This document shows positions 7,378-63,842 of a stretch of 64,000 nt of DNA, piece after piece; position 1 is the first letter of the stretch; each line of letters starts with the position of its first letter. A program made the position numbers and the translations under genes. The stretch lies in the sequence record NZ_CP041047.1. One strand, given 5' to 3'. The DNA comes from a plasmid. The notes beneath the pieces are model-generated. The model had not been told where the DNA came from. It ran no database searches and worked only from the letters and a program-made list of their open reading frames with translations.

Positions 7378-7575
7378 TCTATGATCACCTTTGTCGTGGT
7401 TACTGATTATGAAGTCAAAGATCTCGATAACTAAATTTCGTCAGCCAGCATTTCTATGCGAAGCTACTAAAATGAAGGATTAAGCAGGCAGCGTATTAAA
7501 CAGACTGGTTTCAGACAATAAAGAAGGACGGCAAAACGAGGGTGTTTTCTGCGTTCTGATTATTACCGACTGGAG

Positions 7576-7779
7576 GTGCTTATGGACATGTTTGGTATAA
7601 CGGGCCTTATCCCATTATCGGGGCCAAGCGATTCAGATTATGGCGGTGGAAATGGTCGAAGAGGCCGTGGAAGAAAAGGGCGGACGGCCAAAAGTAAATG
7701 TGAGCGAATGTGGGAGTTTTATATTCTGTTCTATTCTTTATTGAGCCTTCCTGTTGTTTATATGTTTGCCACTACGTAA
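7576..7779 (+). CDS. Small protein with C-terminal TM helix. Candidate entry-exclusion (Eex-like) protein.
   Basis: 67 aa, Arg/Gly-rich, C-terminal hydrophobic helix. Located between traG and traN on the opposite strand. Confidence 0.2.
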   Translation: MLMDMFGITGLIPLSGPSDSDYGGGNGRRGRGRKGRTAKSKCERMWEFYILFYSLLSLPVVYMFATT

Positions 7780-7810
7780 AAGCCCCGCCAGGCTGGCAGG
7801 GCTTTATTAC
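7778..7810. terminator. Hairpin terminator downstream of traG and of the 67-aa ORF
   Basis: agccccgccaggctggcagggct hairpin followed by T-rich sequence. Confidence 0.45.
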
Positions 7811-7813
7811 GAA

Positions 7814-10800
7814 TCACTTTTTCGATGAAATAATCATGTCATCGTTTCCGCCGCTATGGCCACCTTTACCTTCCTTATGTCGCGGATGAACCGGGACATA
7901 CTCCTGATGCGATTGAGTAGTTCGTGCAGGTGGCGGATCACTGAACATTGTACCTCCGTTATTTGAATCGCTATGGCCACCAGCACCGTGGGCATTAACG
8001 GTCATAGTTTCAGCTTCGCCATATCCCTGGTTGTGGGTTCCCATCGCATAGGGAACACCATCGCCTACAGAAGAACCTCCATTAGATGCCTGATGCATTC
8101 CTCCAAGGTTATTGGCCATACCTCCGGTGTTATATTCATGCGTCTGACGATCTGTATTCAAAGCAGTTGTAGCCTGCTGAATAATGGATCCATCATTTGC
8201 TGAACGGTCTAAACCGGCATTATCAATACGGGCAGCAATACCACGGGCAAGGGATGTATTCCCGCCAGAAACGGTTCCATTGTTATTTTCCCCACCTGTC
8301 GCAAGTTGAATACGAGCCATCATGTCACTGCGGGCCTGGGTAAGTTGTTGTTCAGATGCACCAGCTTTGGTCATCGCGTAGTAATTCACAATGGAATCTC
8401 GCGCTGCTTCGCGGTTTGCATCACCACCCAACGGAATTTCTCCGGCGATTGATTTGGCCTGGTTATGCACCTGCTCATAAACCGGGCTTTCCTTGAACGC
8501 ATTGCTGACATGAGAAACGAGCTTGTTAAAGTCTCCAGTGATACCGCCGAGATTATAGTGGTTGTTTTCGAAGTCATTCGCGGCGGTGTTACCCGCTTTA
8601 GTCATGACTTCACCTTGATTTCCTTTATGAATTTGATCAACTGCACCGCTATTCTGTCCACCGACAGTATTAACCTGGCCTTGCCCATAACCATCTGACG
8701 ATGAAGCATGTGCATCACCCAACGCACCGTAAGAACGGCCAGTTACAGCATTTACCGAGTTACTAACGTCCGCTGCACCAGCAACTGCCCGGCCACCTGC
8801 ACTTTCAGCTCCGCCACTCACTCCACGGTATTGCTCAGATGCGGTTGTGGTCAACGCTGGGCTGGAGTCAGCGTTAATGAACCCGGCTTTGGCTGCTACT
8901 GCACCTGCTAAACCAAGTTCACTGGCTGCTTTGAATTGCGCAAAGGTATGTGCATCTTCGTGAGTCATACCTAAAGAGGTCAGGCTCGCTGCATCACCGG
9001 CGATTTTGCTGGATAGTTCAGGGTGCGCCGCGAGGGTTTGAGTCAATGTTGCTTGTGCATCATGGTTACGACCAATAGCCGTAGCAAGTTGCGCTGCGTT
9101 CATTGTCTGGCCCATTGAGGTACTTGAAGCAAACAAGTTTGCTTCCTGGAAATTCTTTTGTGCGGACTGCATTCTTTGATTTGCCTCAGCAAAAGAACGA
9201 GTCGACTGAGAACTTTCTCCTTCTTGCGATAAGGACTGGTACATCGCACTTGCTGCCGTGTTGACGATGCGTGACTGGGTAGCGCTGTCGACTTTATGCG
9301 ATGTGGCACTGTCCGTAGAACCGTACTTAGCGCTGTTGTCATTACTCAGCCCACTGCTTTCTGCCTCTGAACGAGACATACCACCCTTAACGCCTACACC
9401 ACCGCTTGGGCTTCCAAATCCCCCACCGACGCTCGCATCGCTTTTGGCTATTGATACAAGCGCCTGCATATCAGAAATTCCTTGTTCTTTAGCTACAGAA
9501 CTAACATAGGCGCGGTCAGAGCTGCTCAAGCTTGCAAATGCTGCGTTTGAAGCATCACTGTAAACCTGCGAATGCCCCCCAGAGTTCATGTTGCTGGCCA
9601 CCTGGCTAATCATTGCGCCGGATTGAGCAGTCAACGAGCTAGAGGCTGCATCAAGTTCCTGCTTAGCACTGGACAGGTTGTGAGTAGCGACCTGTTTCAT
9701 ATCAATGTTTGGGAGAGTGCCAGAAGACCCACCCATGATCGTCCCTTGCGTTGGGTTAAATTCGGCTTCAGAGCCACGGGTATTGATTGGTGGAGCGTTT
9801 GTAACATCCGGCGATAGGGTTTTGGTATCAGCTGCTGAAGGAGCGGCAGCAGAATTGGCCAGCGAGTTAAACGCTACGGAACTGCCCCATACAATGAACC
9901 CACCTAATGCCGGTATCATTCCATATAAATTACCAGCCAGGCCGATGCTTTTTTGAGTCTCGAATAACAGCTGGTATAGCTGGGCAAAACTAAGACCACC
10001 GGAACCCGAACTGACAAGTATTTGGCTTGATGCATCACGGATGCTATTCAACACATACATGTTTACTACAGCTGCCAATGGTAACCATGTCCACGTCCAG
10101 AAGATGACGAGAAAATACTTCATCACCAACCTGATCCCCATAATACCCAGGCCGAAAAGGAAGGCCATGAAAGGGGCAAGGGCGTAAATAATCCCCTGAA
10201 AAATGGGCATGAATGACCCCATCCAGCTTAAAAAGGATGAGCCGGAAGATGACCACTGGAATGCTTGCTGGGTCATTGTCTGCGCACGTGTGACCGCAGC
10301 AGTACCACGAAAGGAACTTTCAAGGCCATACATCGGCATTTCTCTGAATGACGGATACATGACCATCATGAGTTGGAAGTCACGTATATCCGTTCCCATG
10401 ATATTGAAGAAATTTAAAACCTCTTGAGTTTTTCCAGACCCTGAGCATGTAGCGCCACCACACGTGCGCCCAGCTGCGGCATAGGAACGGGCAAAAGATG
10501 CATCGAGAGCCGCTGAGTTCAGAGTAGCCAGGCCTTTGAGCTTCGTATAAGCATCAGCACATGTGTATAAGGAACCACCTTTTGCAGATTCATCAGTTGC
10601 TGTCGACCAACCACTACGGACGTTGTCATAGATAACTACGCGTTGAAATGAGTCATTTGAAGCTAGCCCGGATACCCCTTGATTGGAGCGGTACATTGAA
10701 GCAAACGTTTTTGAACCACGAATTATGTCGTTACCTACACAATTCTTAACATAGTTAGAAATGCTACCATCCAGATCACCATAACCTTCTGTTTCACCAG

Positions 10801-31802: not shown

Positions 31803-34285
31803 GCGGCTAACCCCCGCTCAACCAGGATTTCGTTGATAGCCTCTTCGGTATTAATCCCCCGGGACTTTCTGTCCTTTATCGCGGCAACGTCTTTCGGGTC
31901 AGTCGAATAGAGCAGTAAGCTGAACGGGTCAACCACAAGCCTGCAAATACCCTGGCCTGCTTTCGATATGACAAAGATTTCAGAATAAACACCTTTCGTG
32001 GAACGGACAGTTTTAAGGAACCGATAACCGGCCTCGTCCAGCGCCAGACGTTTATTAGCTTCGGCTTCGTTAACTGCGGATTCACTTTGCCCCAGCAAGA
32101 GCATAAAGGCTGAGTTATCTGCGATCGATTTCCCGATACTATCTTTGTAAATATCGTTGATAGACTGGGTGATGGTAATTGCAGCTCCATTATATTTACG
32201 GAACCGACGATAGCCCTTCTCGATGAATGCCCCGATATTTCCTGATAACAACGCCCAGGCCTCATCGATGATGACCAGCTTCATCTGGCTACGGTCGCCC
32301 ATGAACATGTCCTGCTGGATTTGATAAATCAGCTGAAGGAGGACAACCTGTTTAAGGTGTTCTGAACTTTCAAGTCGGGAAAGCTCAAGTACAGTGAACG
32401 GGTTTTTGAAGTCGATATTGTTCTTACCAACAAAGTATTTCCCGTACTGGCCCGCACTCGTGAACGGATAGAGCTGATGGCCAATTCGTTTAATGTCTGG
32501 ATCTTCATCATGTAGCAGTGAATCAGCAACCATATCAACGGTGGTCTCTTTCTTGTGTACACGGACAAGATCAGCTACGTGTTGTTTAAGTCGAGACTCT
32601 TCGAATGAATTCAGACCTTCTTTAGGCGCGGCCATCACCGATAACAATCCAATGATCAGATCTTCTTCACCACCACTGGAGTCATCATCTTCAGACTCGC
32701 CGAAATAGTCTTCGATCAGTTCGAAGAAGTTAAGGCATGGCCTGGTTTTGGGATTGAAGTCGAGATAATCGCCCTGGTAGGTCTCACAGATGTTTTTGTA
32801 CGAGTCACCTACATCAATACACCATACTTTAGCCCCGAGGCTTCTGTAGGCGGTGATAATGTAGTTTGTCAGGAATGACTTACCAGACCCTGATTCAGCT
32901 GCGATACAGGCGTTATAGTTAGTATCAGAATCAAACAAGTCCAGTGATTGGATCTGGCCAGAGCGGGATGTCAGCATTAAGGCGGGTTTGTCCGTACCTT
33001 GCCAGTCAGCATAGAGAGGCGAAAGTACCATCGCTTCACTGAGTGCCATTGTACGATATCGGCCAATGGACTTTTCTGCTGATGCTTCGTTAAACATTGG
33101 CAGAGCAGACAGGAAAATTGGCGCAACATAGTAGGTATCTGGGATCATCTTAAACTGATAGGTGTTCAGATAACTAGCTGCTTCCTGAGCAGCGCGTAAC
33201 ACACCATCTTTTGAGTTCGAGAAAATTGATACCGTAAATTTGGCTTTGCAAATTGGGTCGTTGTTATCAACTTTCTCGCTCAGAAGATCGAAGCCTTCAC
33301 GCAAGTTAATCAATGATGGAACCCACTTAATTAATGGGCCACTGGTTTGCTGAACAACCCAGTTACGTTTCGATGTGAACTTAGTTTTTTCACTTTGCTG
33401 ATCAAAGAAAATCAGGCTCATTGAAATGATGCAGGATGATTTAATGCCGGTGACACCGCTCATCATATCGCCGAGGAAGTATTGCGCTTGCCCGGGAAAG
33501 AATCTTTTCGGGAATTTTCGCGCACTCAATGTTTTCACAAACGTTGTCGGTGTAGGTGCTTCCCCTCGAAGCTCGGAATCTGTCGGGTCACCAAAACCGC
33601 AATAGTCTTTCTTAATGAAAAACATGCGGTCGTGGTCGACTAACTGTTCTGAAATGTATTTATCTTCTTGTGGCTGCACCGGCGTCCGGTCTCGCCAGGA
33701 GGCGCTTTCGCCCTGGTTGCAAATGGAGCTCAATACATCGATGTAACTTTCGCGTGTCAATGCACCGGGACACAAACCGGTGATGCTCAGCGTCGTTTCG
33801 AACACATTTCGCAGTTCGTTCACGTGATTGAATTCTTCTTCACGCATTTCATAGTTATATTTGATCGGAATTTTTACTGTAATGAGAAGCACACAATTTC
33901 GGACACGAGTGCCGGTTCGCTTCATTGGCGATTCGGTACTTTTTAGAAGGAATTTAGAGCGGTTATAAATTGCGTTACGCAGGATTGCGTCTCGACAATC
34001 CATACGCAATACATCCATCCGGTTAATTTTCTGTACGATGTTTGGGCTTGCAACCAGGTCAAACTGAACGATAGTTTTGGCGGGGAAATTGGAAGACAGC
34101 AACGTTTGAAGGTTAGTCATCTCCTTGCCGGTTGTCCCGCTTAAGGGACGACATACAAATCCGAAGCCAACATATTTGTTGTCGCACATAAACAAATGAT
34201 TGGATTCGTCATACGCACGAACAGGACACAAGTCAGAAAAACGTTTCAGGTTCTTGAGTCGCTGAAAAATTAAAGATTCACTCAT
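31799..34285 (-). CDS. traC: TraC/TrhC VirB4-family conjugative ATPase
   Basis: 828 aa. Walker A ESGSGKS. Follows dsbC. Confidence 0.8.
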   Translation of the reverse strand: MSESLIFQRLKNLKRFSDLCPVRAYDESNHLFMCDNKYVGFGFVCRPLSGTTGKEMTNLQTLLSSNFPAKTIVQFDLVASPNIVQKINRMDVLRMDCRDAILRNAIYNRSKFLLKSTESPMKRTGTRVRNCVLLITVKIPIKYNYEMREEEFNHVNELRNVFETTLSITGLCPGALTRESYIDVLSSICNQGESASWRDRTPVQPQEDKYISEQLVDHDRMFFIKKDYCGFGDPTDSELRGEAPTPTTFVKTLSARKFPKRFFPGQAQYFLGDMMSGVTGIKSSCIISMSLIFFDQQSEKTKFTSKRNWVVQQTSGPLIKWVPSLINLREGFDLLSEKVDNNDPICKAKFTVSIFSNSKDGVLRAAQEAASYLNTYQFKMIPDTYYVAPIFLSALPMFNEASAEKSIGRYRTMALSEAMVLSPLYADWQGTDKPALMLTSRSGQIQSLDLFDSDTNYNACIAAESGSGKSFLTNYIITAYRSLGAKVWCIDVGDSYKNICETYQGDYLDFNPKTRPCLNFFELIEDYFGESEDDDSSGGEEDLIIGLLSVMAAPKEGLNSFEESRLKQHVADLVRVHKKETTVDMVADSLLHDEDPDIKRIGHQLYPFTSAGQYGKYFVGKNNIDFKNPFTVLELSRLESSEHLKQVVLLQLIYQIQQDMFMGDRSQMKLVIIDEAWALLSGNIGAFIEKGYRRFRKYNGAAITITQSINDIYKDSIGKSIADNSAFMLLLGQSESAVNEAEANKRLALDEAGYRFLKTVRSTKGVYSEIFVISKAGQGICRLVVDPFSLLLYSTDPKDVAAIKDRKSRGINTEEAINEILVERGLAA

Positions 34286-50930: not shown

Positions 50931-50962
50931 AGAGCCCTGAATTAAACCAGGGCTCTTTTTTC
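50931..50962. terminator. Bidirectional terminator
   Basis: agagccctg...cagggctct hairpin followed by a T-run. Confidence 0.55.
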
Positions 50963-52436
50963 AAATTATCACCACTGAAACATTTCGTTCAATACGACTT
51001 CGGTATTCCTCTAATAGCTCCATTAACGAAGTATTGATGTTTACTGATTTCTTCGTTCTGGTGATGGTTACGTACAGCAGATTTAACTCATCAATTATTA
51101 CTTCCCGGGGCTTCTTCATCACAACTGCTTCTATAATGGATGGAAAGTCGTCATTGATAATGACATGGTCAAATTCCTTTCCCTTCGATGTGTGGGCCGT
51201 GGTAACGAGTAGGTCAGCTTCCTTTTCTGATTTGGCTTCATTCATCCTCATGGTCTCAACCATTCCGGGGATATCGTCATACACTTCCATTAGCTTAATC
51301 GCCCGCACCATGTCCACGTCCTTAGTGGTTTCTGCGATCTCATAAAAATTTGCCCAGTTACCGTATTCCGTAGCGATACGGTTATTTTTAATAGCGGCAA
51401 TGTTGCCTGTTTTCAGCGCGTGTAAATCAAGGAGCTCATCGAGACGGTATTTGGATATACCTCCGTTCCACATCACCCGCTTACCCCACATAATCGCCTC
51501 GTAGGCAGATTGTATGACTCCCATGTAGGTACGGCTGATGATGGCGTAAAACTTTTGATCCAGTATCGCTGATGGTTCAACGATAGCATCAAGACTACCC
51601 AGGCCTACCAGGGGGAAAGTTTCTCCCTTCATCGACAGCACAACGTTGGCCAGGGCAGCAACTAGAGGCCCAAACCGGAAGGATTTAGTCAGGCGCATAA
51701 CCTGAGCCCCGTGGCCCTCAACTACCTCAAGAGCGTTTTCTGCGCCGCGCCACCGGTTAATCACCTGGTGCTGGTCGCCGACAAAGACTTTGCAGCAGTT
51801 GTTTCTCAGAACGATATCGATCGTTACCGGATTTGCATCCTGCGATTCGTCGAAGAGAATAACATTGTAGAACTGGTCAAGGGCTGGGTTCGATAACTGG
51901 AACAACTTGAGGATGGTATTCGGTGAGCAATAGGCATCGTTGAGCGGGTCAGATTGCATTTGCCATGTACGTTTTGCTGCACGTAGCGCTTGATCCAGCT
52001 TGCTTTGAGATATTTTATCGGCCTTACTTAAATCTTTAAGTACGTGTTCGGCGGTAATATCGTGTTCATCTGAATTCATAAAATGGGTAAGCCCGTTTAT
52101 TGCAAGCTTAACCACTCTCCAGTCCTCTTCATCCATCATAGTACGGTATTCGCTCACGGATATAAATTGTCTGTATTTATGAGCAAAGTGCTTGTAGCGA
52201 GCTGCGGCTAAACCATGAGATGTTTTACACTCGACGTTTTTGGGAAATTTCTTTTTTGCATCGTCCTTAATCGCTTTATTAAAGACGATATAGAGTATTT
52301 TGAGTGAAGGGTTTGCGTCTGCGAATTCTTTTAGTGTAAAGGTCTTACCAGATCCCGCGTATGCCTGTACTGAAACAATACTGCCAGGCGTGGGTTTGAA
52401 GCCTATGATCACGTTCTGTTCATCAGTTACCGGCAT
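50961..52436 (-). CDS. Superfamily-1 (UvrD/Rep-like) DNA helicase
   Basis: Motif I AYAGSGKT. Motif II DESQD. Motif VI VTTAHTSKGKEFDHV. Confidence 0.6.
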   Translation of the reverse strand: MPVTDEQNVIIGFKPTPGSIVSVQAYAGSGKTFTLKEFADANPSLKILYIVFNKAIKDDAKKKFPKNVECKTSHGLAAARYKHFAHKYRQFISVSEYRTMMDEEDWRVVKLAINGLTHFMNSDEHDITAEHVLKDLSKADKISQSKLDQALRAAKRTWQMQSDPLNDAYCSPNTILKLFQLSNPALDQFYNVILFDESQDANPVTIDIVLRNNCCKVFVGDQHQVINRWRGAENALEVVEGHGAQVMRLTKSFRFGPLVAALANVVLSMKGETFPLVGLGSLDAIVEPSAILDQKFYAIISRTYMGVIQSAYEAIMWGKRVMWNGGISKYRLDELLDLHALKTGNIAAIKNNRIATEYGNWANFYEIAETTKDVDMVRAIKLMEVYDDIPGMVETMRMNEAKSEKEADLLVTTAHTSKGKEFDHVIINDDFPSIIEAVVMKKPREVIIDELNLLYVTITRTKKSVNINTSLMELLEEYRSRIERNVSVVII

Positions 52437-53482: not shown

Positions 53483-54115
53483 ATGAAAACTTCTTTTAGA
53501 GTAAGAATACCAACTTTTCGAGTGTCCCATTTAAACGAGGTTGATATGTTGAAATCAGAGGTATTGTTTGGTTCACTGACATCATTGGCATTATTGTTTT
53601 TCTTAAATACAGCTCAAGCTGATAGCCCAACAGAGGTGATGCTACCATCTGAAGGTGTGAGAGTCGTTGTCGGATTTTCGCCTGAAGGGTCTGCACAGAA
53701 AGCCATACTGGATCTGATCAATTCAGCTCAGCAGGAAATCCGTATGGGGGCATACTCATTTACGTCACCCGTAATTGCGAAAGCATTAGTTAATGCCCAC
53801 CGAAGGGGTGTAGATGTCAGGATCGTAGTCGACAAAGAACAAAATAAAAACCGATATGCCGTTTCCACTATGAATGCCGTGGCTAACGCGGGTATCCCGT
53901 TACGGACGAATGATCAATTTCTTCTGCACCATGATAAGTATTTGTGCATCGACCGGGTATCTGTTGAGACCGGGAGTTTTAATTATTCCAGTTCAGCTAT
54001 GAAAAATAGTGAAAATAGCATCGTTCTCTATAATGTCCCGGATGTCACAGCGCAGTATCTGGCCCACTGGGAATCGCGTTGGGCTGGTGGGGAGGATTAC
54101 AAACCTAATTATTGA
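53483..54115 (+). CDS. nuc: PLD-family (HKD) periplasmic endonuclease, Nuc-like
   Basis: HHDKYLCID...GSFN HxK(x)4D motif. Signal peptide. Confidence 0.65.
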   Translation: MKTSFRVRIPTFRVSHLNEVDMLKSEVLFGSLTSLALLFFLNTAQADSPTEVMLPSEGVRVVVGFSPEGSAQKAILDLINSAQQEIRMGAYSFTSPVIAKALVNAHRRGVDVRIVVDKEQNKNRYAVSTMNAVANAGIPLRTNDQFLLHHDKYLCIDRVSVETGSFNYSSSAMKNSENSIVLYNVPDVTAQYLAHWESRWAGGEDYKPNY

Positions 54116-54150: not shown

Positions 54151-54873
54151 TCATTTCAGAAATACGTGAAGTTCGTCCATATCAAGGTCGTTATAAAATG
54201 AACGCCATCCTTTACGGGCTAAATTCGGATGCAGCAGTTTTATGTTGCTTAATGGCATCATGCTGCTTAGCCCCATTTTAATAAAGTATTCATACACCTG
54301 GCGGCTGTACCGGTCAAAATCGGTAAGCGGTCTTGACAGAAGGTATGCTGCTTCGGACATAGTCAATCCCTGTATATGCAACCTGTACCCCAGCAGGCGG
54401 CTGCATGTATCGCGCATAACACCGCGTGTGAGAGGGAATAACTCATCACTTACAAGATGCTCAGGTAAGTGAGTTCTGGGGCACTGAACGGGATTTATAC
54501 CCCGGATATAGCACTCATCATTCTCAAGGATACAAAACTGGGGTTCCGGGCCGGATAATGGCTTACCAAGAAAGCCACAAGGATCGAGCACTCCACCTCC
54601 GTTAAGTGCTATCCAGCCATACTGCGTTTCAGTTATCTGGTATATCCCACGATCTCCTGGATTGATGCGTTCTTTGACCATTTTTCGACGTGTCCCTATA
54701 GTGGCCGTTCCTGCAATCACGCCCTGGTCTACCAGGGCTCGGCATACGATGTAGGATTTCGACTCTGACCATTCATTCCAGGGAAAACCAATTTGGTAAC
54801 TGGTGGAAACCAGCCTTAAGCCGTCGATGCATGAATCTGTCATGTAACTCCTCCCGAAAAAAAAGCGCACCAA
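54151..54873 (-). CDS. Hypothetical protein (240 aa)
   Basis: Last gene of the nine-gene minus-strand operon. Confidence 0.3.
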   Translation of the reverse strand: MVRFFFGRSYMTDSCIDGLRLVSTSYQIGFPWNEWSESKSYIVCRALVDQGVIAGTATIGTRRKMVKERINPGDRGIYQITETQYGWIALNGGGVLDPCGFLGKPLSGPEPQFCILENDECYIRGINPVQCPRTHLPEHLVSDELFPLTRGVMRDTCSRLLGYRLHIQGLTMSEAAYLLSRPLTDFDRYSRQVYEYFIKMGLSSMMPLSNIKLLHPNLARKGWRSFYNDLDMDELHVFLK

Positions 54874-54901
54874 AGATGCGCTCGTAATTTCAAATCAACA
54901 G

Positions 54902-56230
54902 TCAGGCTTTGGATTTTTTGGCCAGCTTGTCCGTTTGTTTAGAAAGTTCCTTTTTCGTGAATTTGAGGGAATCGGTTCGTTTATCAGGATCACCGACTGC
55001 CTGAAGAATCAATGAGTAGGAGTTATCGCCATTGAGTACAAAGAGGTCGGTTGCCTGCGACCAAGCCCCCTTATTCTCTGACCGCTGTACCCGCAGAATA
55101 TTTCCTGGGAGGAGTGAGACTGACCAACCTTTTGTATCAGAAAGGTACACGTTGACCTTACCTTTCGATGGCAACAGGAATACTTTTGAGGAAAAGGTAG
55201 AATAAACGAATACCGTGTTTTGTCCCTGCGAGTTGTATTCAACCGATTTAAAGTGACCACTATAGTCCAGGTCAGCACCAGTAAGGGTATTCTTCTCCTG
55301 AACTACAAATTGTTGGGCTGTATAGCCTTCTGATGCAGCTTTATATTCAGACGTAGCCGCAGTGTTAGCGGGTTCTGTATAACCGAACTCAGCGGGGTCA
55401 ATTTGATGGCCAGAAGTATCTTTGGCGGTGTTTTCAACGCCTACAACTTGTCGTTGAGAAGGCGATGGAGGTGTTAGAACCGGGTTAATCTGCGCCACAG
55501 CGTGTTGATTTGGTTCTGCCGGAGTAGGAGCAGGAACTGGTGTTTCACTAGTGGCCCCAGAAAGTGCTTTTTTTGCAATTTCCTGGGCAGGAGTTATCTC
55601 AACAGTTCCAGGTTGTTCTGCGTTTTGTGAAACTTCACTACCGTCAGTAAATCCAGGTTCAGCCTTAATTGAGTCAATCAATGACTGCGTAGCAGGGGCC
55701 GACTTGGATACAACTGGTGAATTTGCATCCGGGTTAGCTGGTGGTGTGGTTGTGGCCATTTTTAGCATCTGATCGCCAAGGTTATCAGACGATGCAGGTG
55801 AAACACCGGCGCTATCTTGCTTTGTGACAGCAGGTTCACTTTTGTCTTCATCAGGAGTGACTGATGCTGGTTCCTGTTCATTATTTGCGACAGGAAGTGT
55901 CAGTGTTGGCTGAGGCCCAGTATCACCGGTATCAAGGTCATCGTCATCCGCATCGATAGCATGTTGTTTTGCAATATCCGGGTTAACGCTAATCCCGCTC
56001 TTTGCAACTTCGACGATAGATAGGTTCGGTTCTTTGTCTGGCTTACCATGCATTGAAATAAATGCGCCTAACGTGCCTGCCGCAAAGAGACCGGCAACCA
56101 GGATACACAAGGTTTTTTTAGAAATTCGCATCTTAACGCTGGGATTTTCATCTCCAGCATTCTGCGCTGCGCGTTCACGTAATTTCTCCTGGCCGTATTC
56201 AGCACTTGTGCCACGTTTTTCACTCGTCAT
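54902..56230 (-). CDS. Membrane-anchored protein. Cytoplasmic N-terminus, TM, long acidic Pro-rich linker, beta-rich C-terminal domain (TonB/VirB10-like architecture).
   Basis: Architecture read from the sequence. No motif-level assignment. Confidence 0.35.
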   Translation of the reverse strand: MTSEKRGTSAEYGQEKLRERAAQNAGDENPSVKMRISKKTLCILVAGLFAAGTLGAFISMHGKPDKEPNLSIVEVAKSGISVNPDIAKQHAIDADDDDLDTGDTGPQPTLTLPVANNEQEPASVTPDEDKSEPAVTKQDSAGVSPASSDNLGDQMLKMATTTPPANPDANSPVVSKSAPATQSLIDSIKAEPGFTDGSEVSQNAEQPGTVEITPAQEIAKKALSGATSETPVPAPTPAEPNQHAVAQINPVLTPPSPSQRQVVGVENTAKDTSGHQIDPAEFGYTEPANTAATSEYKAASEGYTAQQFVVQEKNTLTGADLDYSGHFKSVEYNSQGQNTVFVYSTFSSKVFLLPSKGKVNVYLSDTKGWSVSLLPGNILRVQRSENKGAWSQATDLFVLNGDNSYSLILQAVGDPDKRTDSLKFTKKELSKQTDKLAKKSKA

Positions 56231-56462
56231 TGAAAACCTCGTTGATCACTATTCGTTCTGGCCGAAGCCCCAACTCACGGTGTATATGAAAGTGAGCATG
56301 ATATGGAAAGCCCCATAATCGCGTGAGACGGTTGCCCCGGAAATGATTAGGAAAATATGCTCTCGCGATAATAAACGGATTATATCTTGAGGGAGGAAGC
56401 TCTCGAAATTTTGCGGCCAGAAAACGACCGCAAAATGAGATGGTTTTCTTGAAGATTGATTT

Positions 56463-57557
56463 CTAGTAGTTACGGGTTCCCTTGCAAATGGGATAAACCG
56501 AACAACCATAGAAATAAGTACCGTTCGACATTCTTCTAACCATTTTGCTATGGCAGCGGGGACAGTTAGGTATGGCATTCGGATCGTTTATTTCATTCTC
56601 ACCAGGAACAACATTAATTATCTCAGGGGGAGGGGTGGGGATGTCTTTATCTTTGATGATTTTCAGAAGTCTGGAACCATCGATAAGTGATAATGTTCCT
56701 TTAACGTTTGCGCTGAGAGCGAATGTCCATGCATCCTGAGTGAAGAACCCGGAGGTTATGATATAGCCCCGCTCATATGCATCGGCTTGCACCACACCAT
56801 AAATTTCACGGACTACTGATACACCAACCTTGCTGGTTTTCCACAGTTTGCACTGTACCATTTCGCGGTGGCCACCTTTATGCAGCAGAATGTCGACTCC
56901 GCCGTCAGCTCCTGTATTGGTCAGAGTGGCCTTGTAGCCGTTGAGCTCGAAATGCAGTCTTATAATCTTTTCAAATTGCTCCCACGACATATTCGAGAGG
57001 ATATTTTGAGCATCATTTGCATCCTGAATAGAAGAGTAAATTCGCCGTACTTCAGCAAGTTGAACAGTTTTAAGCAATGTTCCTACAAACATCATTATCG
57101 CAAAGGTTAAAGATGTGCCACGAAGGATGTCGGGGAGTATATTGCTTACACCCACAGCAAAGCGAGTCATTACGAGGGCAAGGTTATCAGTGCTGCTTGC
57201 AATAAACTGGTAATACAAATCGCCTGGTATGTACACATAATTAGTCAGAGAAAGAATATATAACAAGCATGAGATCGGGAATCCGATATACCATCGGAAT
57301 AAATAGGTTTTCTGGCTAGCTCCACTGTTTCTCCATGACTGGATATTAAAAATCACGCCGGAGACTTCCCTACCTGTACGGGTCAGGGTCATCTGGAGAG
57401 ATAATTGCGTAATAAAGAGGCCCGCAATGACTAACGGGCCATCATGGAGAAAGTATAAGACTAATGACGTTACAAGAAAAAAGCACCACTGGAATTTGGC
57501 ACTTCGGGACATTCCTTTTGCTGCCAATTTTCTGAAAACCATATGGTCACCATTCAT
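56463..57557 (-). CDS. Membrane-anchored (about 5 TM) Mrr-cat/restriction-endonuclease-fold nuclease domain plus a C-terminal topoisomerase-type C4 zinc ribbon
   Basis: GADGGVDILL...QCKLW (Mrr_cat D-(D/E)xK) followed by CPRC...C..C. Polytopic N-terminus. Confidence 0.5.
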   Translation of the reverse strand: MNGDHMVFRKLAAKGMSRSAKFQWCFFLVTSLVLYFLHDGPLVIAGLFITQLSLQMTLTRTGREVSGVIFNIQSWRNSGASQKTYLFRWYIGFPISCLLYILSLTNYVYIPGDLYYQFIASSTDNLALVMTRFAVGVSNILPDILRGTSLTFAIMMFVGTLLKTVQLAEVRRIYSSIQDANDAQNILSNMSWEQFEKIIRLHFELNGYKATLTNTGADGGVDILLHKGGHREMVQCKLWKTSKVGVSVVREIYGVVQADAYERGYIITSGFFTQDAWTFALSANVKGTLSLIDGSRLLKIIKDKDIPTPPPEIINVVPGENEINDPNAIPNCPRCHSKMVRRMSNGTYFYGCSVYPICKGTRNY

Positions 57558-57937
57558 TCAGAATTAATTCTAAGGAAGGTGCGCCTCAGTATCCCATTAC
57601 AGTTATCAATGATTACATCGTATGCCATGACTGATAAACAGATCAGGGCAAATGTATAAACGATGATTTCTTCAACATATGGATAATCAGGGTATATCGC
57701 ACCTAAATAGATTGCTGACAGTACAAGATACCCACTCCACAATCGGAACAAACGTGGTCTTACTAACAACCATGTGAGTAACGCCAGAACCACTAAGTTC
57801 GCAATGCCAATGGCGTTGATCGTCTTTATGGAAGTGATTGGTACAAAGTACAGGACGCAATAAACACTACATATCAGAATCACAATGGCGTAAATCAGAA
57901 CACGCTGGAGTAGAGAGTTCATGGTTTCCTCATACAC
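57554..57937 (-). CDS. Small polytopic membrane protein, translationally coupled upstream partner of the Mrr-cat protein
   Basis: 4-nt overlap. 3-4 TM. Confidence 0.35.
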   Translation of the reverse strand: MYEETMNSLLQRVLIYAIVILICSVYCVLYFVPITSIKTINAIGIANLVVLALLTWLLVRPRLFRLWSGYLVLSAIYLGAIYPDYPYVEEIIVYTFALICLSVMAYDVIIDNCNGILRRTFLRINSE

Positions 57938-58001: not shown

Positions 58002-58310
58002 TTAATCTTTCTCATCTCCCTCACAAGCAATTTGGCTCGGCATCCAGTAAGGATGATTTGAAGTCTTGACGTAACTGAACACCATTCTGCATGGAACGCT
58101 CGTTAAGTTCGCAACTATCATGCTTCTGTCACTGTTTTCAAGGAATTCAGCCCCAGAAAGCTCATTTTCATTCCATAGACCAGCATTCGAAAGGGTTACC
58201 ATCGCATCTGGTAGGGGATTTATGTCCTTAGTTGACGGAGCTGGTAATGTATCCCGACTACCACAACCCAGGGTAAGGAAGCATAAAAGAACAATCGTTA
58301 TAGATTTCAT
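58002..58310 (-). CDS. Small lipoprotein
   Basis: Lipobox LTLGC. Confidence 0.35.
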   Translation of the reverse strand: MKSITIVLLCFLTLGCGSRDTLPAPSTKDINPLPDAMVTLSNAGLWNENELSGAEFLENSDRSMIVANLTSVPCRMVFSYVKTSNHPYWMPSQIACEGDEKD

Positions 58311-58942
58311 CCTCTCTTCCTCATTTTGGTGTTGTGCGTATTAAAGAGGTCGATGGCTTCAGTTCCCGTGATAGGTAACCAGTAAGGGGGAATGGCCGGA
58401 GTCTCATAAAATGGAATTCTCCCGCAGCCTACAACGGGTAAGGAACAAACAAAAAGAATTTCGTCGAGCTGGTTTTCAAGTGCCCACAACTGGCTGTACC
58501 CAACTAATCCATTTAATTTTGCTTCATGGTGAATATTCAGAATCAAAAATACTGCTTTCGCAAAACCGAATGGTGGGTTACCAAAGCGGATGGGATCAAT
58601 ACCCAGCGATGTCAATGCAGCTTTCGATATACCATTAAACTTATTGAATAGCGCAGAGCCATGCTCATGGTCTGTTCTTAGGGCAAACGGAATAGTATTG
58701 TCGGGGCTAATTAAGCATTGCTCTTTGAATTGACGGAAACCAGACACCCGCTGGATATGACATTCGACTGAACGTAGAAACAAATCTGGCACACAAAAAT
58801 CATGAGCAGTAAAACCTTCGAATCCCTCATCGTTACAGAGCTGGTTTGTTAACCTGAACCACAATTGGTAGGCAGACAGCACCTCCTCGTAAGTGTTTCT
58901 GACCTTCATATCATCGGTTCTGTAAAAGGTTTCGATCATCAT
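58307..58942 (-). CDS. Hypothetical protein carrying an FGNPPFG motif (motif-IV-like of N6-adenine methyltransferases; no motif I seen)
   Basis: Motif read. Insufficient for assignment. Confidence 0.3.
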   Translation of the reverse strand: MMIETFYRTDDMKVRNTYEEVLSAYQLWFRLTNQLCNDEGFEGFTAHDFCVPDLFLRSVECHIQRVSGFRQFKEQCLISPDNTIPFALRTDHEHGSALFNKFNGISKAALTSLGIDPIRFGNPPFGFAKAVFLILNIHHEAKLNGLVGYSQLWALENQLDEILFVCSLPVVGCGRIPFYETPAIPPYWLPITGTEAIDLFNTHNTKMRKRG

Positions 58943-58948
58943 GACTGA

Positions 58949-59692
58949 TTACCTTTGATGCGGCTGCTGTCGTTGTTTAATAGAACGGTCTCCTGAATCG
59001 CCACGCGCCAGAAAGCCTAAATTGACTATCTTGAAATTCACTCTCCCTACGAGACTATCGTGATGGATGAGACCTCTGAGGTTTTTGGGTGTACCAGGGG
59101 GATTGTCCCAGTAACGGGAATCAAGCGAGTGGTCTCGGTTGTCACCGACCATAAAGTAATATCCTTCGGGAATAATCCATTTTTTACCCGTTTGTACATA
59201 GCCGATACGGTTATCGGTCTCGAAGATATAACTTTGACCGGCAGTGTCGGTCTCTGCCTGGTATTGAGTTGTAAAACCATCTTTTTTAATCAGGCTACCG
59301 TTTTGTTTACCGTTTATCGAGAAGACTTTATCTTCGTTGTATGTGACGGTATCGCCAGGAATACCCAATACGCGTTTGACGTAGTAAACCCCAGGAACGG
59401 ATGGAGCGTTAAAAACGAGTACGTCCCCACGCTGAACAGCGCGATGATCGAATAAACCTCCTACACGCTGAGCAATAACCAAATCTCCAGGTTTTATAGT
59501 TGGTGACATAGATTCTGTCGGGATCAGGAATACTCCGCCCAGAAACTGAAAGGACAGAATAACTGCCAGCGATAAGGAGGAGGAAACTATCAACCAATGC
59601 TTTGGACGACGAGACCTTAACAGCTGGTAAGCGAGATAAAGCACAGAGATGATAAAAACAAAAATTAACGGTTTCATGGTGTCATATACCAC
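58949..59692 (-). CDS. LepB-like S26 signal peptidase I (second S26 paralog in the window)
   Basis: GDNRDHSLDSRYW box. N-terminal TM. Confidence 0.65.
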   Translation of the reverse strand: MVYDTMKPLIFVFIISVLYLAYQLLRSRRPKHWLIVSSSLSLAVILSFQFLGGVFLIPTESMSPTIKPGDLVIAQRVGGLFDHRAVQRGDVLVFNAPSVPGVYYVKRVLGIPGDTVTYNEDKVFSINGKQNGSLIKKDGFTTQYQAETDTAGQSYIFETDNRIGYVQTGKKWIIPEGYYFMVGDNRDHSLDSRYWDNPPGTPKNLRGLIHHDSLVGRVNFKIVNLGFLARGDSGDRSIKQRQQPHQR

Positions 59693-60110
59693 GCTGAATT
59701 ACTTTTGCGTATTTGGAGAGTGATTTAGCCAAAGACAGGTACACATAACAGGTGAAAAGGTAAACAAAATGGATGCTGGTGGTTTTTCTGGCTAAAGTGA
59801 AAAATTGGTTCGCCTGGCCACCGGCTAATGAGTACTGGAGCTGAACTGTAGGTTTTTCTGTAGAGACATTAAAACTTCTAGCTTTAATGTAAATTAACGG
59901 CTTGAAAAATGTTTTATAACCCACACGTGCATCTATTGTGCATATGATAATGGCTACCGCTAAAGGCACATAGAATGGAATGATTGCGTGGAACCAGCTC
60001 CATAATGACCAAACCAGAACTGAATCCTGTAACAGTCTGGCAATAGAGCTGGCCTGCGTTCTGCCCGCAACCACCATAATGGGTATAAATTTAACCATGC
60101 AATCCACCAT
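59682..60110 (-). CDS. Membrane protein, first gene of the operon
   Basis: ORF with TM helices. Confidence 0.3.
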   Translation of the reverse strand: MVDCMVKFIPIMVVAGRTQASSIARLLQDSVLVWSLWSWFHAIIPFYVPLAVAIIICTIDARVGYKTFFKPLIYIKARSFNVSTEKPTVQLQYSLAGGQANQFFTLARKTTSIHFVYLFTCYVYLSLAKSLSKYAKVIQRGI

Positions 60111-60387: not shown

Positions 60388-61038
60388 ATGTCTATCGATG
60401 AAGCAGTTAAGATGAGTGATATTGAAAAGGGGCTCTTAGGTGAAATTTACGAGCTTATCGACGCAATGACCAAAGCGGAAGCCAATTTCTCACCGGGAAA
60501 AAAGAATCTTTTTCGTCGGGTGTTCGATTATTTAACCGGTTCGGAAATTTTGCGGAAAGTCCAGTTAGATATTTATAGCAAAGTAGTCATGAAACTATGT
60601 GAACGCATACCAGATCATTTCAAAATGCTAACCTCTCATGCTGAGATCACAAAAGATCTGGAGGCAATCTATGCGCAAGATATTCATCAACTGGAGATTT
60701 TCATAGATGCTGTCGAGTCATATCTGAAAGATAAGAACGAGTGTGACTACAATGTCACAAGCAATGAGTATATGGCAATTAACAGGCTACGGATCAGAAT
60801 TAACAACTTTCAGGGTGTACTGGTTGGTTTAAAACTAAGCCGGGTACAAGCGCAAATGAGCTATGAAACAGCTATCGATGTTAAAGATAGCCTAAGAGAT
60901 ATTAATGATAATTTGTTGCCTATGTGGGAGGGGCAGGTGAAGAGCATTAGTGCCAATGGTGTGTGTAATGGCATTGATGAAGTGGCACATGAAAAATTCA
61001 AGAAACTTGTCAACAAATTAAATAAGAACATAAGGTGA
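60388..61038 (+). CDS. Hypothetical helical protein, possibly KlaA-like
   Basis: Position upstream of the TelA-like candidate. Speculative. Confidence 0.25.
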   Translation: MSIDEAVKMSDIEKGLLGEIYELIDAMTKAEANFSPGKKNLFRRVFDYLTGSEILRKVQLDIYSKVVMKLCERIPDHFKMLTSHAEITKDLEAIYAQDIHQLEIFIDAVESYLKDKNECDYNVTSNEYMAINRLRIRINNFQGVLVGLKLSRVQAQMSYETAIDVKDSLRDINDNLLPMWEGQVKSISANGVCNGIDEVAHEKFKKLVNKLNKNIR

Positions 61039-61044
61039 GATAAA

Positions 61045-62163
61045 ATGAAAAACATTAATAGTATTATTGATGTGTCAGATGTCAAAGTGGCTAAGGAATT
61101 CGACAAATATGCTGTTGATGTAAGCATGGAATCATCAATAAAAGATGCAGTCAGATCTTTCCAGATTGGTGATATTGATGCCGCGCATAACTTTGGACGA
61201 TTGGAGGACACTACTGATATTAATTATCTTGATAACCTCCTTCTCAGCGTCAGCTCATCATCTCAGGGCAAGAAGGGTGAGACTCTGAATGAGATTGTTG
61301 CACTGGCTCGTGAAGTCAGTAATGCAGTCGAACCAAGTTATCTTCAAAAGAAACTGTCACGGATACCGTATGTTGGGCCTTTCATAATGAAAGCCATCGG
61401 CATTCATTTTAGTGCAATGTCAAGATTTGATTCAGTTAAAGGACAAATCGATATTTTAACTTCGGATATAGAAAGCATATCTGAAGGGTTGTTTGAAATG
61501 AATAAAAATATTGATGGAATGTATGAGCAAGCCTTAACGAGTGTAAAAAGTACAGGGGTTAACATTGTAGCTGCTTATTACCTTCTGGAGAAGTTACAAA
61601 CAGTTCAGGTTTCTATTCGTAAGGAACTAAAAACTCAACCTGATAATACCATGCTGAGCATGGAAGCAATGAATATCGAACATCAAATCGCCCTCATAAC
61701 CAAACGTCGAAATGACATGATCACAGAACAACAAAAAGCATTTGAAGACCTGAAGATGATGAAAATGATGAAGTTCAATAACCTTTCGATGGTAGACCAG
61801 TTTGAAACTATTATTAAAGTAACGATACCATCTTCTAAACGTAGCCATCTTATAATTGACCAGGCCGAAAGAAGTGACAAAAGCTCATTACTGATTCAGG
61901 CAATTGGTGATTCTGTAAATCAACAAGCCAGACGTCAAGCTTTGTTGGTAAAAGAGAGTAGTATCCGTGTAGCAAAAACAGCTAATCGTACAGTGTATGA
62001 TGTTGAGACAATTGATTACATATCAAATCAGATCAATGAGGCCGGACGAGAAATTAAAAAAATCCACGACCGTGCCAAAACACAACATGTCCAGCTTGAA
62101 ACACGCGCAGCGCAATGGAAGGAGAAACGTTTTATGATTGCGCAGGAACTGTCTTCTAAATAA
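61045..62163 (+). CDS. All-helical 372-aa protein, possibly TelA/KlaB (toxic-anion-resistance) family
   Basis: Size and composition only. Flanked by a membrane-protein gene as in klaABC. Confidence 0.3.
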   Translation: MKNINSIIDVSDVKVAKEFDKYAVDVSMESSIKDAVRSFQIGDIDAAHNFGRLEDTTDINYLDNLLLSVSSSSQGKKGETLNEIVALAREVSNAVEPSYLQKKLSRIPYVGPFIMKAIGIHFSAMSRFDSVKGQIDILTSDIESISEGLFEMNKNIDGMYEQALTSVKSTGVNIVAAYYLLEKLQTVQVSIRKELKTQPDNTMLSMEAMNIEHQIALITKRRNDMITEQQKAFEDLKMMKMMKFNNLSMVDQFETIIKVTIPSSKRSHLIIDQAERSDKSSLLIQAIGDSVNQQARRQALLVKESSIRVAKTANRTVYDVETIDYISNQINEAGREIKKIHDRAKTQHVQLETRAAQWKEKRFMIAQELSSK

Positions 62164-62646
62164 TGACTACAAATTTGTAGGAGGTTCTATGGCAAAAATC
62201 AGGCAAAGCAATCCATTTGATGAGGTAGAAAGGGTAATAAGATGTAAGCGCGATAGAATTATTTATCTTTCGATAGCTTTATCCTTACTCTTTGCCGTTA
62301 TATTGCTCATATTGTGGTTTTGTATTCCAACGGATATTTCTATAGATGGACAGGTTGCCCAGGTTTCAACTGATATTAGTAAGGTTCTGAGTGCTAATGG
62401 ATTTGGTGTGGTTACTTCAGATATCTTTGAATCACTTGGTTCCGACATGGCTCTATACGCCAGTGTAATAACATCATTGATAACCATGTTTGCAATTGCA
62501 TGGTCACTGATTAAAGGTGATGGTTTCAATATCGAATTGTTCTTCGCCCTTGTAGTTGTAACCACCGGCTTTTCAGTTTTTCGAACGCTTTATGATTCCG
62601 AGTCTGATAGGTACACGTATTACTCTGAAAAAGTAAGCTCTGCTAT
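62138..62646 (+). pseudogene. Membrane protein gene (KlaC/TelB-like position) truncated at its 3' end by IS5. The listed ORF reads into the IS.
   Basis: The ORF's last 9 codons derive from the IS5 left IR. Confidence 0.4.

Positions 62647-63842
<1,196 letters not shown>

Follow-up and report, generated by a model that had tools for sequence, protein, structure and literature searches.

Apart from its orthologues on plasmid Rts1, the closest described counterparts of the locus analyzed here include nucleases that act at a membrane or belong to the Mrr-type catalytic family. The locus, a predicted membrane-anchored Mrr-type nuclease gene with a small membrane-protein gene directly upstream, lies on a 64,000-nt stretch of plasmid DNA (sequence record NZ_CP041047.1; the whole stretch is called the window). 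SNIPE combines an inner-membrane anchor with a cytoplasmic nuclease and cuts phage DNA during injection (Saxton et al. 2026; PMC13190303). Without its transmembrane (TM) helix it is toxic, and the anchor averts self-cleavage (PMC13190303). The window protein resembles SNIPE in having an inner-membrane anchor and a cytoplasmic nuclease, both of which are only predicted for it, from hydropathy and the positive-inside rule in 16 orthologues. There is no sequence or fold relation between the two. SNIPE has one TM helix, DUF4041 and a GIY-YIG nuclease, whereas the window protein has four TM helices, a PD-(D/E)xK domain of the Mrr_cat family, a zinc ribbon, a partner and a place in a type IV secretion system (T4SS) operon; neither DUF4041 nor GIY-YIG (T5orf172) is matched in it by Pfam.

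Epona, a Vibrio cholerae integron cassette, joins two TM helices to Mrr_cat and is anti-phage in Escherichia coli (Darracq et al., bioRxiv 10.1101/2024.07.02.601686). The fusion of Mrr_cat to an N-terminal TM domain is shared with the window protein. Compared by description only, Epona differs in its 2-TM "holin" domain, in a zinc ribbon going unmentioned and in being a single-gene integron cassette.

The type IV enzymes Mrr and MspJI share the catalytic domain family and the D...QxK motif with the window protein, and MspJI is its top structural match. Mrr and MspJI are soluble and carry N-terminal modification-reading domains (Mrr_N, SRA-like), whereas the N-terminus of the window protein is a membrane domain: Pfam finds no winged-helix Mrr_N in it, and residues 1-170 hold the four TM helices. 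Zorya provides a fourth comparison, as ZorD carries a Mrr-like nuclease module that works with a membrane complex against entering phage DNA. ZorD, however, is a soluble SNF2 helicase-nuclease recruited by ZorAB; the PADLOC ZorD models match the window protein in the nuclease domain alone (profile positions 945-1064, the nuclease module), it has no helicase, and PADLOC gives no ZorA or ZorB match among its neighbors.

Set against these systems, the window nuclease may be an enzyme confined to the membrane that attacks DNA as it comes in through the inner membrane, like SNIPE or Epona. We put this reading forward tentatively.

Anatomy of the nuclease and its partner

The pair and its domains are as follows.

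56463..57557, minus strand: membrane-anchored Mrr-type nuclease gene, 364 aa from ATG 57557 (open reading frame (ORF), Pfam)
57060..57485, minus strand: N-terminal membrane domain, residues ~25-166 (hydropathy, lysine plus arginine (K+R) distribution in 16 orthologues)
56658..56999, minus strand: Mrr_cat PD-(D/E)xK nuclease domain, residues 187-300 (Pfam)
56469..56567, minus strand: Cys4 zinc ribbon at the C-terminus, topoisomerase I/III type, residues 331-363 (Pfam)
57554..57922, minus strand: four-TM partner gene, orthologue of Rts1 orf188, 122 aa (ORF and ribosome-binding site)

The first-pass annotation, made from the sequence alone, had described a polytopic N-terminal domain, an Mrr_cat-like core, a topoisomerase-type zinc ribbon and a small TM protein encoded by an overlapping gene, and the ORFs, Pfam and hydropathy bear this anatomy out. 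The 364-aa protein contains GADGGVDILL...VQCK and CPRC. Mrr_cat (PF04471) is matched over model positions 1-114 of 115 with E=4.2e-27 and 95 bits against a cut-off of 21. Residues E196, D218, D222, Q235 and K237 do not vary among the 16 orthologues or among 45 members of a wider family, so that a check of the catalytic residues, suggested at first pass, revealed no loss. Structure prediction of the C-terminal part, suggested at the same time, also agreed. The AlphaFold2 model of residues 172-364 was built from 30 sequences; its mean pLDDT is 82.8, and its secondary structure follows the alpha-beta-beta-beta-alpha-beta order of the restriction-endonuclease fold. This C-terminal model alone was used in the fold search, the full-length model (pLDDT 59.7) being kept out of it, and the best PDB matches by Foldseek were the nuclease domain of MspJI at the top, AF1548 (1Y88), EcoT38I and FokI. 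A single-sequence search against PDB sequences gave no match. An Mrr/MspJI-type PD-(D/E)xK domain with an intact catalytic site (E196, D222, Q235-x-K237) is well supported; that it cuts DNA is a prediction.

The zinc ribbon is matched by Zn_ribbon_Top1 (PF01396) with E=3.5e-8 and 33.5 bits against a cut-off of 32, and the Rts1 orthologue reaches 44.9 bits. A profile of the C-terminal region also picks up the Top3-alpha and E. coli Top I ribbons (E ~7e-4), its only other match being AF1548. Each of the four cysteines (C332, C335, C352 and C358) is present in all 16 orthologues and conserved at 90% or more in the wider family. The ribbon and its CPRC had been recognized correctly at first pass, but the second pair, given there as C..C, is C352-x5-C358.

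Four TM helices (~25-41, 42-59, 88-108 and 148-166) are predicted in the nuclease by hydropathy and the positive-inside rule, with both termini inside, and the same holds for the 16 orthologues. In these, K+R residues cluster at the N-terminus (mean 5.8), in the TM2-TM3 loop (5.3) and after TM4 (4.7), and the TM3-TM4 loop is acidic. Because of this K+R distribution, the nuclease domain and the zinc ribbon are predicted to be cytoplasmic. Anchoring in the inner membrane by this four-TM domain, which is specific to the plasmid lineage, is a well supported prediction. A profile search with this domain against 1.84 billion representative proteins returned five matches, all from its own family. The same search gave no fusions to other effectors, and the idea of the domain as a reusable module was rejected.

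The partner ORF reaches GTG 57937 (127 aa) and overlaps the 364-aa nuclease ORF by 4 nt, which is how the two genes were first described. The ORFs stand as described; the overlap does not survive the likely starts. For the nuclease, ATG 57542 gives 359 aa with a GGTG Shine-Dalgarno-like sequence, as in WP_032941660.1 (RefSeq/PGAP), and an orthologue with 67% identity (P0004) begins at this same position, five codons downstream of ATG 57557. The partner most likely starts at ATG 57922, behind a GAGGAA ribosome-binding site, and is then 122 aa long, as are the orthologues P0074 and P0075. With the nuclease starting at ATG 57542, the genes (359 aa and 122 aa) are separated by an 11-nt gap.

Four TM helices are predicted by hydropathy in the partner too; the partner and the N-terminal domain of the nuclease are not paralogues (hhalign probability 0.06%). 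A DUF2644 match to the partner falls below the Pfam threshold, and no similarity to known antitoxins or immunity proteins was found in Pfam, PADLOC and NCBIfam. Searches with PADLOC and NCBIfam assigned no system or family to the nuclease, its partner or the remaining small operon proteins. A four-TM gene of ~120-127 aa lies directly upstream of the nuclease gene in all seven backbones inspected, and the partner family has the same narrow phyletic spread and the same contigs as the nuclease. The partner gene is annotated in Rts1 and missing from several plasmid annotations, including the pKOCBH-A and pCFR-4109 listings; in pCFR-4109, which belongs to the window's own group, the ORF is intact although omitted.

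The pair in an Rts1-type transfer operon

Genes for a MOBH relaxase, TraD, ssb-bet-exo, an AcaB-type regulator and an F-type T4SS surround the pair and make up an SXT/IncC/Rts1-like transfer system; the window belongs to a conjugative, resistance-type megaplasmid of the Rts1-like MOBH/F type. The pair segment is 100% identical in pKOCBH-A of Klebsiella michiganensis and in eight more Citrobacter, Klebsiella and E. coli megaplasmids, and ~90% identical in about 70 further plasmids. In Rts1 the pair corresponds to orf188/orf189, inside the operon orf184-192. Primer 188H1 ends in ATGTTTCTTTATTACTTG (MFLYYL), the start of the partner orthologue, and orf188 is therefore the partner and orf189 the nuclease. 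The Rts1 orthologues share lengths, TM layout, domains, gene order and neighbors with the window pair. Rts1 differs in an additional ParB-like gene (orf190) after the nuclease and in a 15-nt gap instead of an overlap. By blastp, the window genes match Rts1 as follows.

lepB: Rts1 orf185, 43% identity
211-aa protein: Rts1 orf186, 32% identity
lipoprotein-like 102-aa protein: Rts1 orf187, 48% identity
four-TM partner: Rts1 orf188, 37% identity
nuclease: Rts1 orf189, 36% identity, full length
442-aa protein: Rts1 orf191, 33% identity over 82 aa
240-aa protein: Rts1 orf192, 33% identity

The 142-aa protein has no significant blastp match in Rts1 and is paired with orf184 by position alone. The same gene order is found in the window, pCFR-4109, pKOX-ea2b, Rts1 (IncT), Morganellaceae/Providencia plasmids, a Xenorhabdus contig and a metagenomic contig. 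Rts1, pKOX-ea2b, Xenorhabdus and L016 have a weakly ParB-like gene after that of the nuclease, which the window plasmid lacks.

Murata, Gotoh and Hayashi (2024; PMC10838148) deleted every gene of Rts1. Relative to the wild type, conjugation fell to 0.00097 on deletion of orf185, to <0.0001 for orf186, to 0.056 for orf191 and to 0.018 for orf192, and both signal peptidases of Rts1 (LepB-type and TraF/TrhF-type) were required (PMC10838148). Deletion of the block orf188-190 left conjugation at 0.38 of the wild type and was not scored as a defect; the block was reported as dispensable and its proteins themselves went undiscussed (PMC10838148). That the pair is dispensable for transfer is well supported, as shown for the Rts1 orthologue. 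DNA processing during transfer had been among the roles suggested at first pass, and as an essential role it is refuted for the orthologue by this value.

The rest of the operon is arranged as follows.

58002..60110, minus strand: upstream operon genes for a 142-aa protein, a LepB-type signal peptidase, a 211-aa protein and a lipoprotein-like 102-aa protein (spacing and overlaps)
54151..56230, minus strand: downstream genes, orthologues of orf191 (442 aa) and orf192 (240 aa), mating-linked in Rts1 (blastp)
56409..56435, minus strand: 27-nt palindrome/hairpin TTTTGCGGTCGTTTTCTGGCCGCAAAA, just past the nuclease stop codon (sequence)
56406-56379, minus strand: promoter-like TCGAGA-16-TATAAT ahead of the 442-aa gene (promoter scan)

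The order is 142-aa, LepB, 211-aa, 102-aa, partner and nuclease, followed after a 232-nt gap by the 442-aa and 240-aa genes. The LepB-type gene is assigned to Peptidase_S26 by Pfam and NCBIfam. Its place among the mating-pair-formation genes of this operon makes it probable that the pair is produced together with the T4SS. Words of the form TTTTGRCCNCAAAA, resembling the palindrome, occur upstream of Rts1 orf184 and between orf187 and orf188, in counts that are not significant alone. A block is conserved among Rts1-like promoters, and a search for a shared activator box ahead of the operon found no significant recurrence of it at the other transfer promoters of the window.

Several further features of the region were observed. 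The plasmid has two signal peptidases, the LepB-type (247 aa, 58949-59692, minus strand) and a TraF/TrhF-type at ~32227-32751 (minus strand) between traC and traW. Two other nuclease-type genes flank the pilin gene traA, at 53483-54115 (plus strand) and 50961-52436 (minus strand); these encode a secreted PLD-family (Nuc-like) protein and a UvrD-helicase/3'-5' exonuclease, both kept in Rts1 and pKOX-ea2b. The 442-aa orf191 orthologue (54902-56230, minus strand) has a long low-complexity middle region rich in Ala, Pro, Ser and Thr, and its Xenorhabdus counterpart (L015, 9181-10296) has a weak CagX/VirB9 Pfam match, which hints that the orf191-type protein is an outer-membrane T4SS component. Divergent from the operon lies a TelA-like "toxic anion resistance" gene (60388-61600, plus strand), truncated to 549 nt compared with 1116 nt in pCFR-4109. 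Chromosome-like cargo follows it (62500-63500), and GC content rises from ~0.37-0.39 to 0.50-0.58.

Selection, recurrent inactivation and the wider family

Compared with pCFR-4109 (~90% DNA identity), the ratio of nonsynonymous to synonymous substitution rates (dN/dS) of the nuclease gene is 0.127 and that of the partner gene 0.192, next to 0.123 for lepB and 0.132 for the orf186 orthologue. This purifying selection shows that both ORFs are real genes and not chance ORFs. Of 87 related plasmids with a match to the pair, 72 have a contiguous copy covering at least 80% of it, and in at least five of those 72 an IS5 or ISKpn26 insertion sequence lies inside the match. The pair segment is disrupted in at least 20 of the 87, as against 1 of 86 for the adjacent lepB/orf186-like segment (Fisher's exact test, p ~7e-6). 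The readable breakpoints fall in the nuclease gene, at query nt 105, 719/721, 855, 999 and 1049; since they differ, the inactivations are independent. The lesions comprise deletions as well as IS5/ISKpn26 insertions. The partner is nearly always retained in the disrupted plasmids. One of these was inspected closely: IS5 splits the nuclease gene, and the plasmid is typed conjugative. An example of a disrupted plasmid is L097 (NZ_CP056270.1).

A different kind of insertion is seen in p705SK3_1 (L098, NZ_CP022152.1), where a complete type I restriction-modification (R-M) system, hsdM-hsdS-hsdR, is inserted in the region 5099-9099, exactly between the partner and the nuclease (~57567 in the window). 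The same insertion occurs in a C. werkmanii plasmid, making two plasmids in all. The nuclease of p705SK3_1 is intact despite it.

The nuclease/zinc-ribbon core has relatives of 250-350 aa with two N-terminal TM helices ("LPWW"), Mrr_cat and a zinc ribbon, annotated as "restriction endonuclease" or "restriction system protein" in Pseudomonas, Xanthomonas, Variovorax, Vibrio and others. Their core is 35-42% identical to that of the window nuclease, with the same invariant residues and a predicted cytoplasmic C-terminus. They differ in having two TM helices and not four, no partner and no conserved neighbors, and they are mostly chromosomal. A tblastn search found homologues in 495 plasmid records, 235 conjugative and 147 mobilizable, and a genome scan yielded 200 confirmed loci, with the family in many proteobacterial chromosomes (all 80 best loci). 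Hydropathy and ribbon scoring covered 62 of these best 80 loci: at least one N-terminal TM segment was found in 60 of the 62, two TM helices in 44 and a zinc ribbon in 61. With such numbers, and with SNIPE and Epona as precedents, the earlier remark that a membrane-tethered nuclease is "unusual" was overstated. No conserved neighbor of the wider family was found at 78 loci, the largest neighbor cluster having five members; the neighborhoods mix housekeeping genes with scattered transposase, integrase, SNF2, HNH, AAA_21 and methylase genes.

Related architectures are also seen on other conjugative plasmids. E. coli pT270A (L012, 3783-6378) has lepB, a small protein, a GDSL esterase and a 295-aa four-TM Mrr_cat protein without a ribbon, and in such MOBH/F-type plasmids the Mrr_cat protein lies at a position equivalent to that of the window pair. 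In Bacillus/Priestia conjugative plasmids a one-TM Mrr_cat-zinc-ribbon gene lies by a type IA topoisomerase gene, downstream of a MobP2 relaxase; in Bacillus mycoides p32 (L004, 6276-10663) a 220-aa version overlaps a DUF3991-TOPRIM gene. The Bacillus/Priestia case is an independent link of this nuclease architecture to conjugation modules.

Candidate roles of the pair

Of the roles proposed in the first-pass annotation, exclusion or defense at the envelope is, we infer, the best supported. Since the Rts1 counterpart is not needed for transfer, the pair most likely guards the inner membrane against foreign DNA, although our confidence in this remains below even. The nuclease would cut DNA arriving at the cytoplasmic face of the inner membrane, its targets being the DNA of pilus-dependent or other phages or the incoming strand of a rival conjugative element. 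The zinc ribbon would capture the entering DNA, and tethering, possibly with the partner, would hold the active site off the resident chromosome and plasmid. Self and non-self would then be told apart spatially, as demonstrated for SNIPE (PMC13190303). A nuclease that is conserved yet dispensable and repeatedly lost shows the pattern of a costly accessory weapon, and purifying selection together with recurrent independent inactivation fits one that is beneficial but costly. The wider two-TM family, which is solitary and patchy and lies in variable neighborhoods that include transposases and restriction/defense genes, supports the defense reading as well.

Several points weigh against it. The block deletion in Rts1 is the only experimental result on the pair or its orthologues, and both the topology and the nuclease activity are predictions. 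PADLOC matches are confined to the nuclease domain. The gene behaves like a vertically inherited backbone gene at a fixed position and not like swappable defense cargo, and its identity to the Rts1 orthologue (36%) shows a divergence similar to that of its operon neighbors (32-48%). Beside the T4SS of its own plasmid, the nuclease would need to leave the outgoing strand uncut, and nothing seen here suggests a way to do so. In a Pfam/PADLOC census of 105 neighbors of the wider family, mobile and defense genes are only modestly enriched, and the family is nearly absent from phages (2 of 50,697 phage genome records).

A narrower possibility, which we regard as unlikely, is that nuclease and partner dock at the base of their own T4SS or pilus and destroy DNA entering there; the targets would be the genomes of pilus-specific phages or the transfer strand of a second donor. 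To our knowledge, known exclusion systems act through protein-protein blocking. If true, the docked pair would be a DNA-level entry exclusion or male-phage immunity in the mating-pair-formation operon of IncT/pKOX-type plasmids.

Equally improbable, in our estimate, is a conditional accessory of conjugation, in which the nuclease would process T4SS-bound DNA under conditions that laboratory matings between E. coli strains do not reproduce, for instance in native hosts, with particular recipients, during mating on surfaces or when stalled transfer intermediates need clearing. The transfer of the Rts1 orf188-190 deletion mutant at 0.38 of the wild type (PMC10838148) speaks against such a role, as do the disruption of the pair in about a quarter of the window-group plasmids, including the IS5-split example typed conjugative, and the chromosomal, solitary position of most family members, with conjugation genes not nearby. 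In its favor, at least five backbones keep the pair at one fixed place among the mating-pair-formation genes, and the divergence of the pair is like that of the operon neighbors. The pT270A-type MOBH plasmids hold their four-TM Mrr_cat protein at the same place after lepB, and the Bacillus/Priestia plasmids combine a TM-Mrr_cat-zinc-ribbon gene with DUF3991-TOPRIM, topoisomerase IA and MobP2.

Fertility inhibition similar to that by Osa of IncW plasmids appears doubtful. Here the nuclease would destroy the transfer strand of a co-resident rival at the membrane or the coupling protein, for which plasmid factors that inhibit rivals offer precedents (PMC5696584). The pair is plasmid-borne, predicted to be in the membrane and apparently expressed with the transfer genes, its ribbon is of a kind with which topoisomerase I binds single-stranded DNA, and the weakly ParB-like gene comes next after the nuclease gene in Rts1, pKOX-ea2b, Xenorhabdus and L016. 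Osa itself is said, in work credited to Maindola et al. 2014, to have nuclease activity. Against this role, neither window protein is homologous to Osa, PifC or FipA, the window plasmid lacks the ParB-like gene, none of the findings points to a preference for foreign relaxosomes, and the solitary chromosomal relatives do not fit.

A toxin-immunity or addiction pair, also raised at first pass, would have a toxic nuclease neutralized or sequestered by the four-TM partner, and we consider it a still poorer candidate. The wider two-TM family and the pT270A version lack such a partner and the pair never moves as a cassette, being never found outside this one operon, which weakens this explanation. 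The partner is also unlike known antitoxins or immunity proteins, and in p705SK3_1 the type I R-M system stands between the genes with the nuclease intact. The two genes are nevertheless tightly coupled (4-nt overlap or 11-nt gap), strictly co-occurring, adjacent and co-inherited, and the readable natural lesions take out the nuclease and leave the partner; SNIPE, moreover, is toxic once its TM anchor is removed (PMC13190303). The Rts1 deletion, which removed orf188 and orf189 together, does not add to the case.

A non-catalytic tether, in which a degenerate restriction-endonuclease fold merely anchors DNA to the membrane, has a weak secondary Pfam match to NA-iREase1 ("inactive REase"; 27.2 bits against a cut-off of 27) in its favor and is very improbable in view of the much higher Mrr_cat score of 95 bits, the invariance of E196, D218, D222, Q235 and K237 in 45 diverse family members and the QxK motif, the active form in Mrr/MspJI enzymes.

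The "restriction endonuclease" annotation, the deletion of the Rts1 orthologue and membrane nucleases as a kind are already known. New are the lineage-specific four-TM anchor with its obligate four-TM partner, the fixed place of the pair in the mating-pair-formation operon across several plasmid backbones, and the contrast between its conservation and its frequent inactivation. If the pair has no role in guarding the membrane, the locus is one more annotated "restriction endonuclease" of unknown use. Clinical and wastewater Enterobacterales commonly carry Rts1-like MOBH megaplasmids (IncT, repA(pKOX) and the Citrobacter/Klebsiella group of the window), and if the defense reading is true, these would bring a plasmid-encoded barrier that could shape which phages and competing plasmids enter the host cell. 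Such a barrier would carry the principle of SNIPE, to cut DNA where it enters, over to conjugative elements and to another fold of nuclease, and would offer a starting point for understanding what the large TM-Mrr_cat-zinc-ribbon family does.

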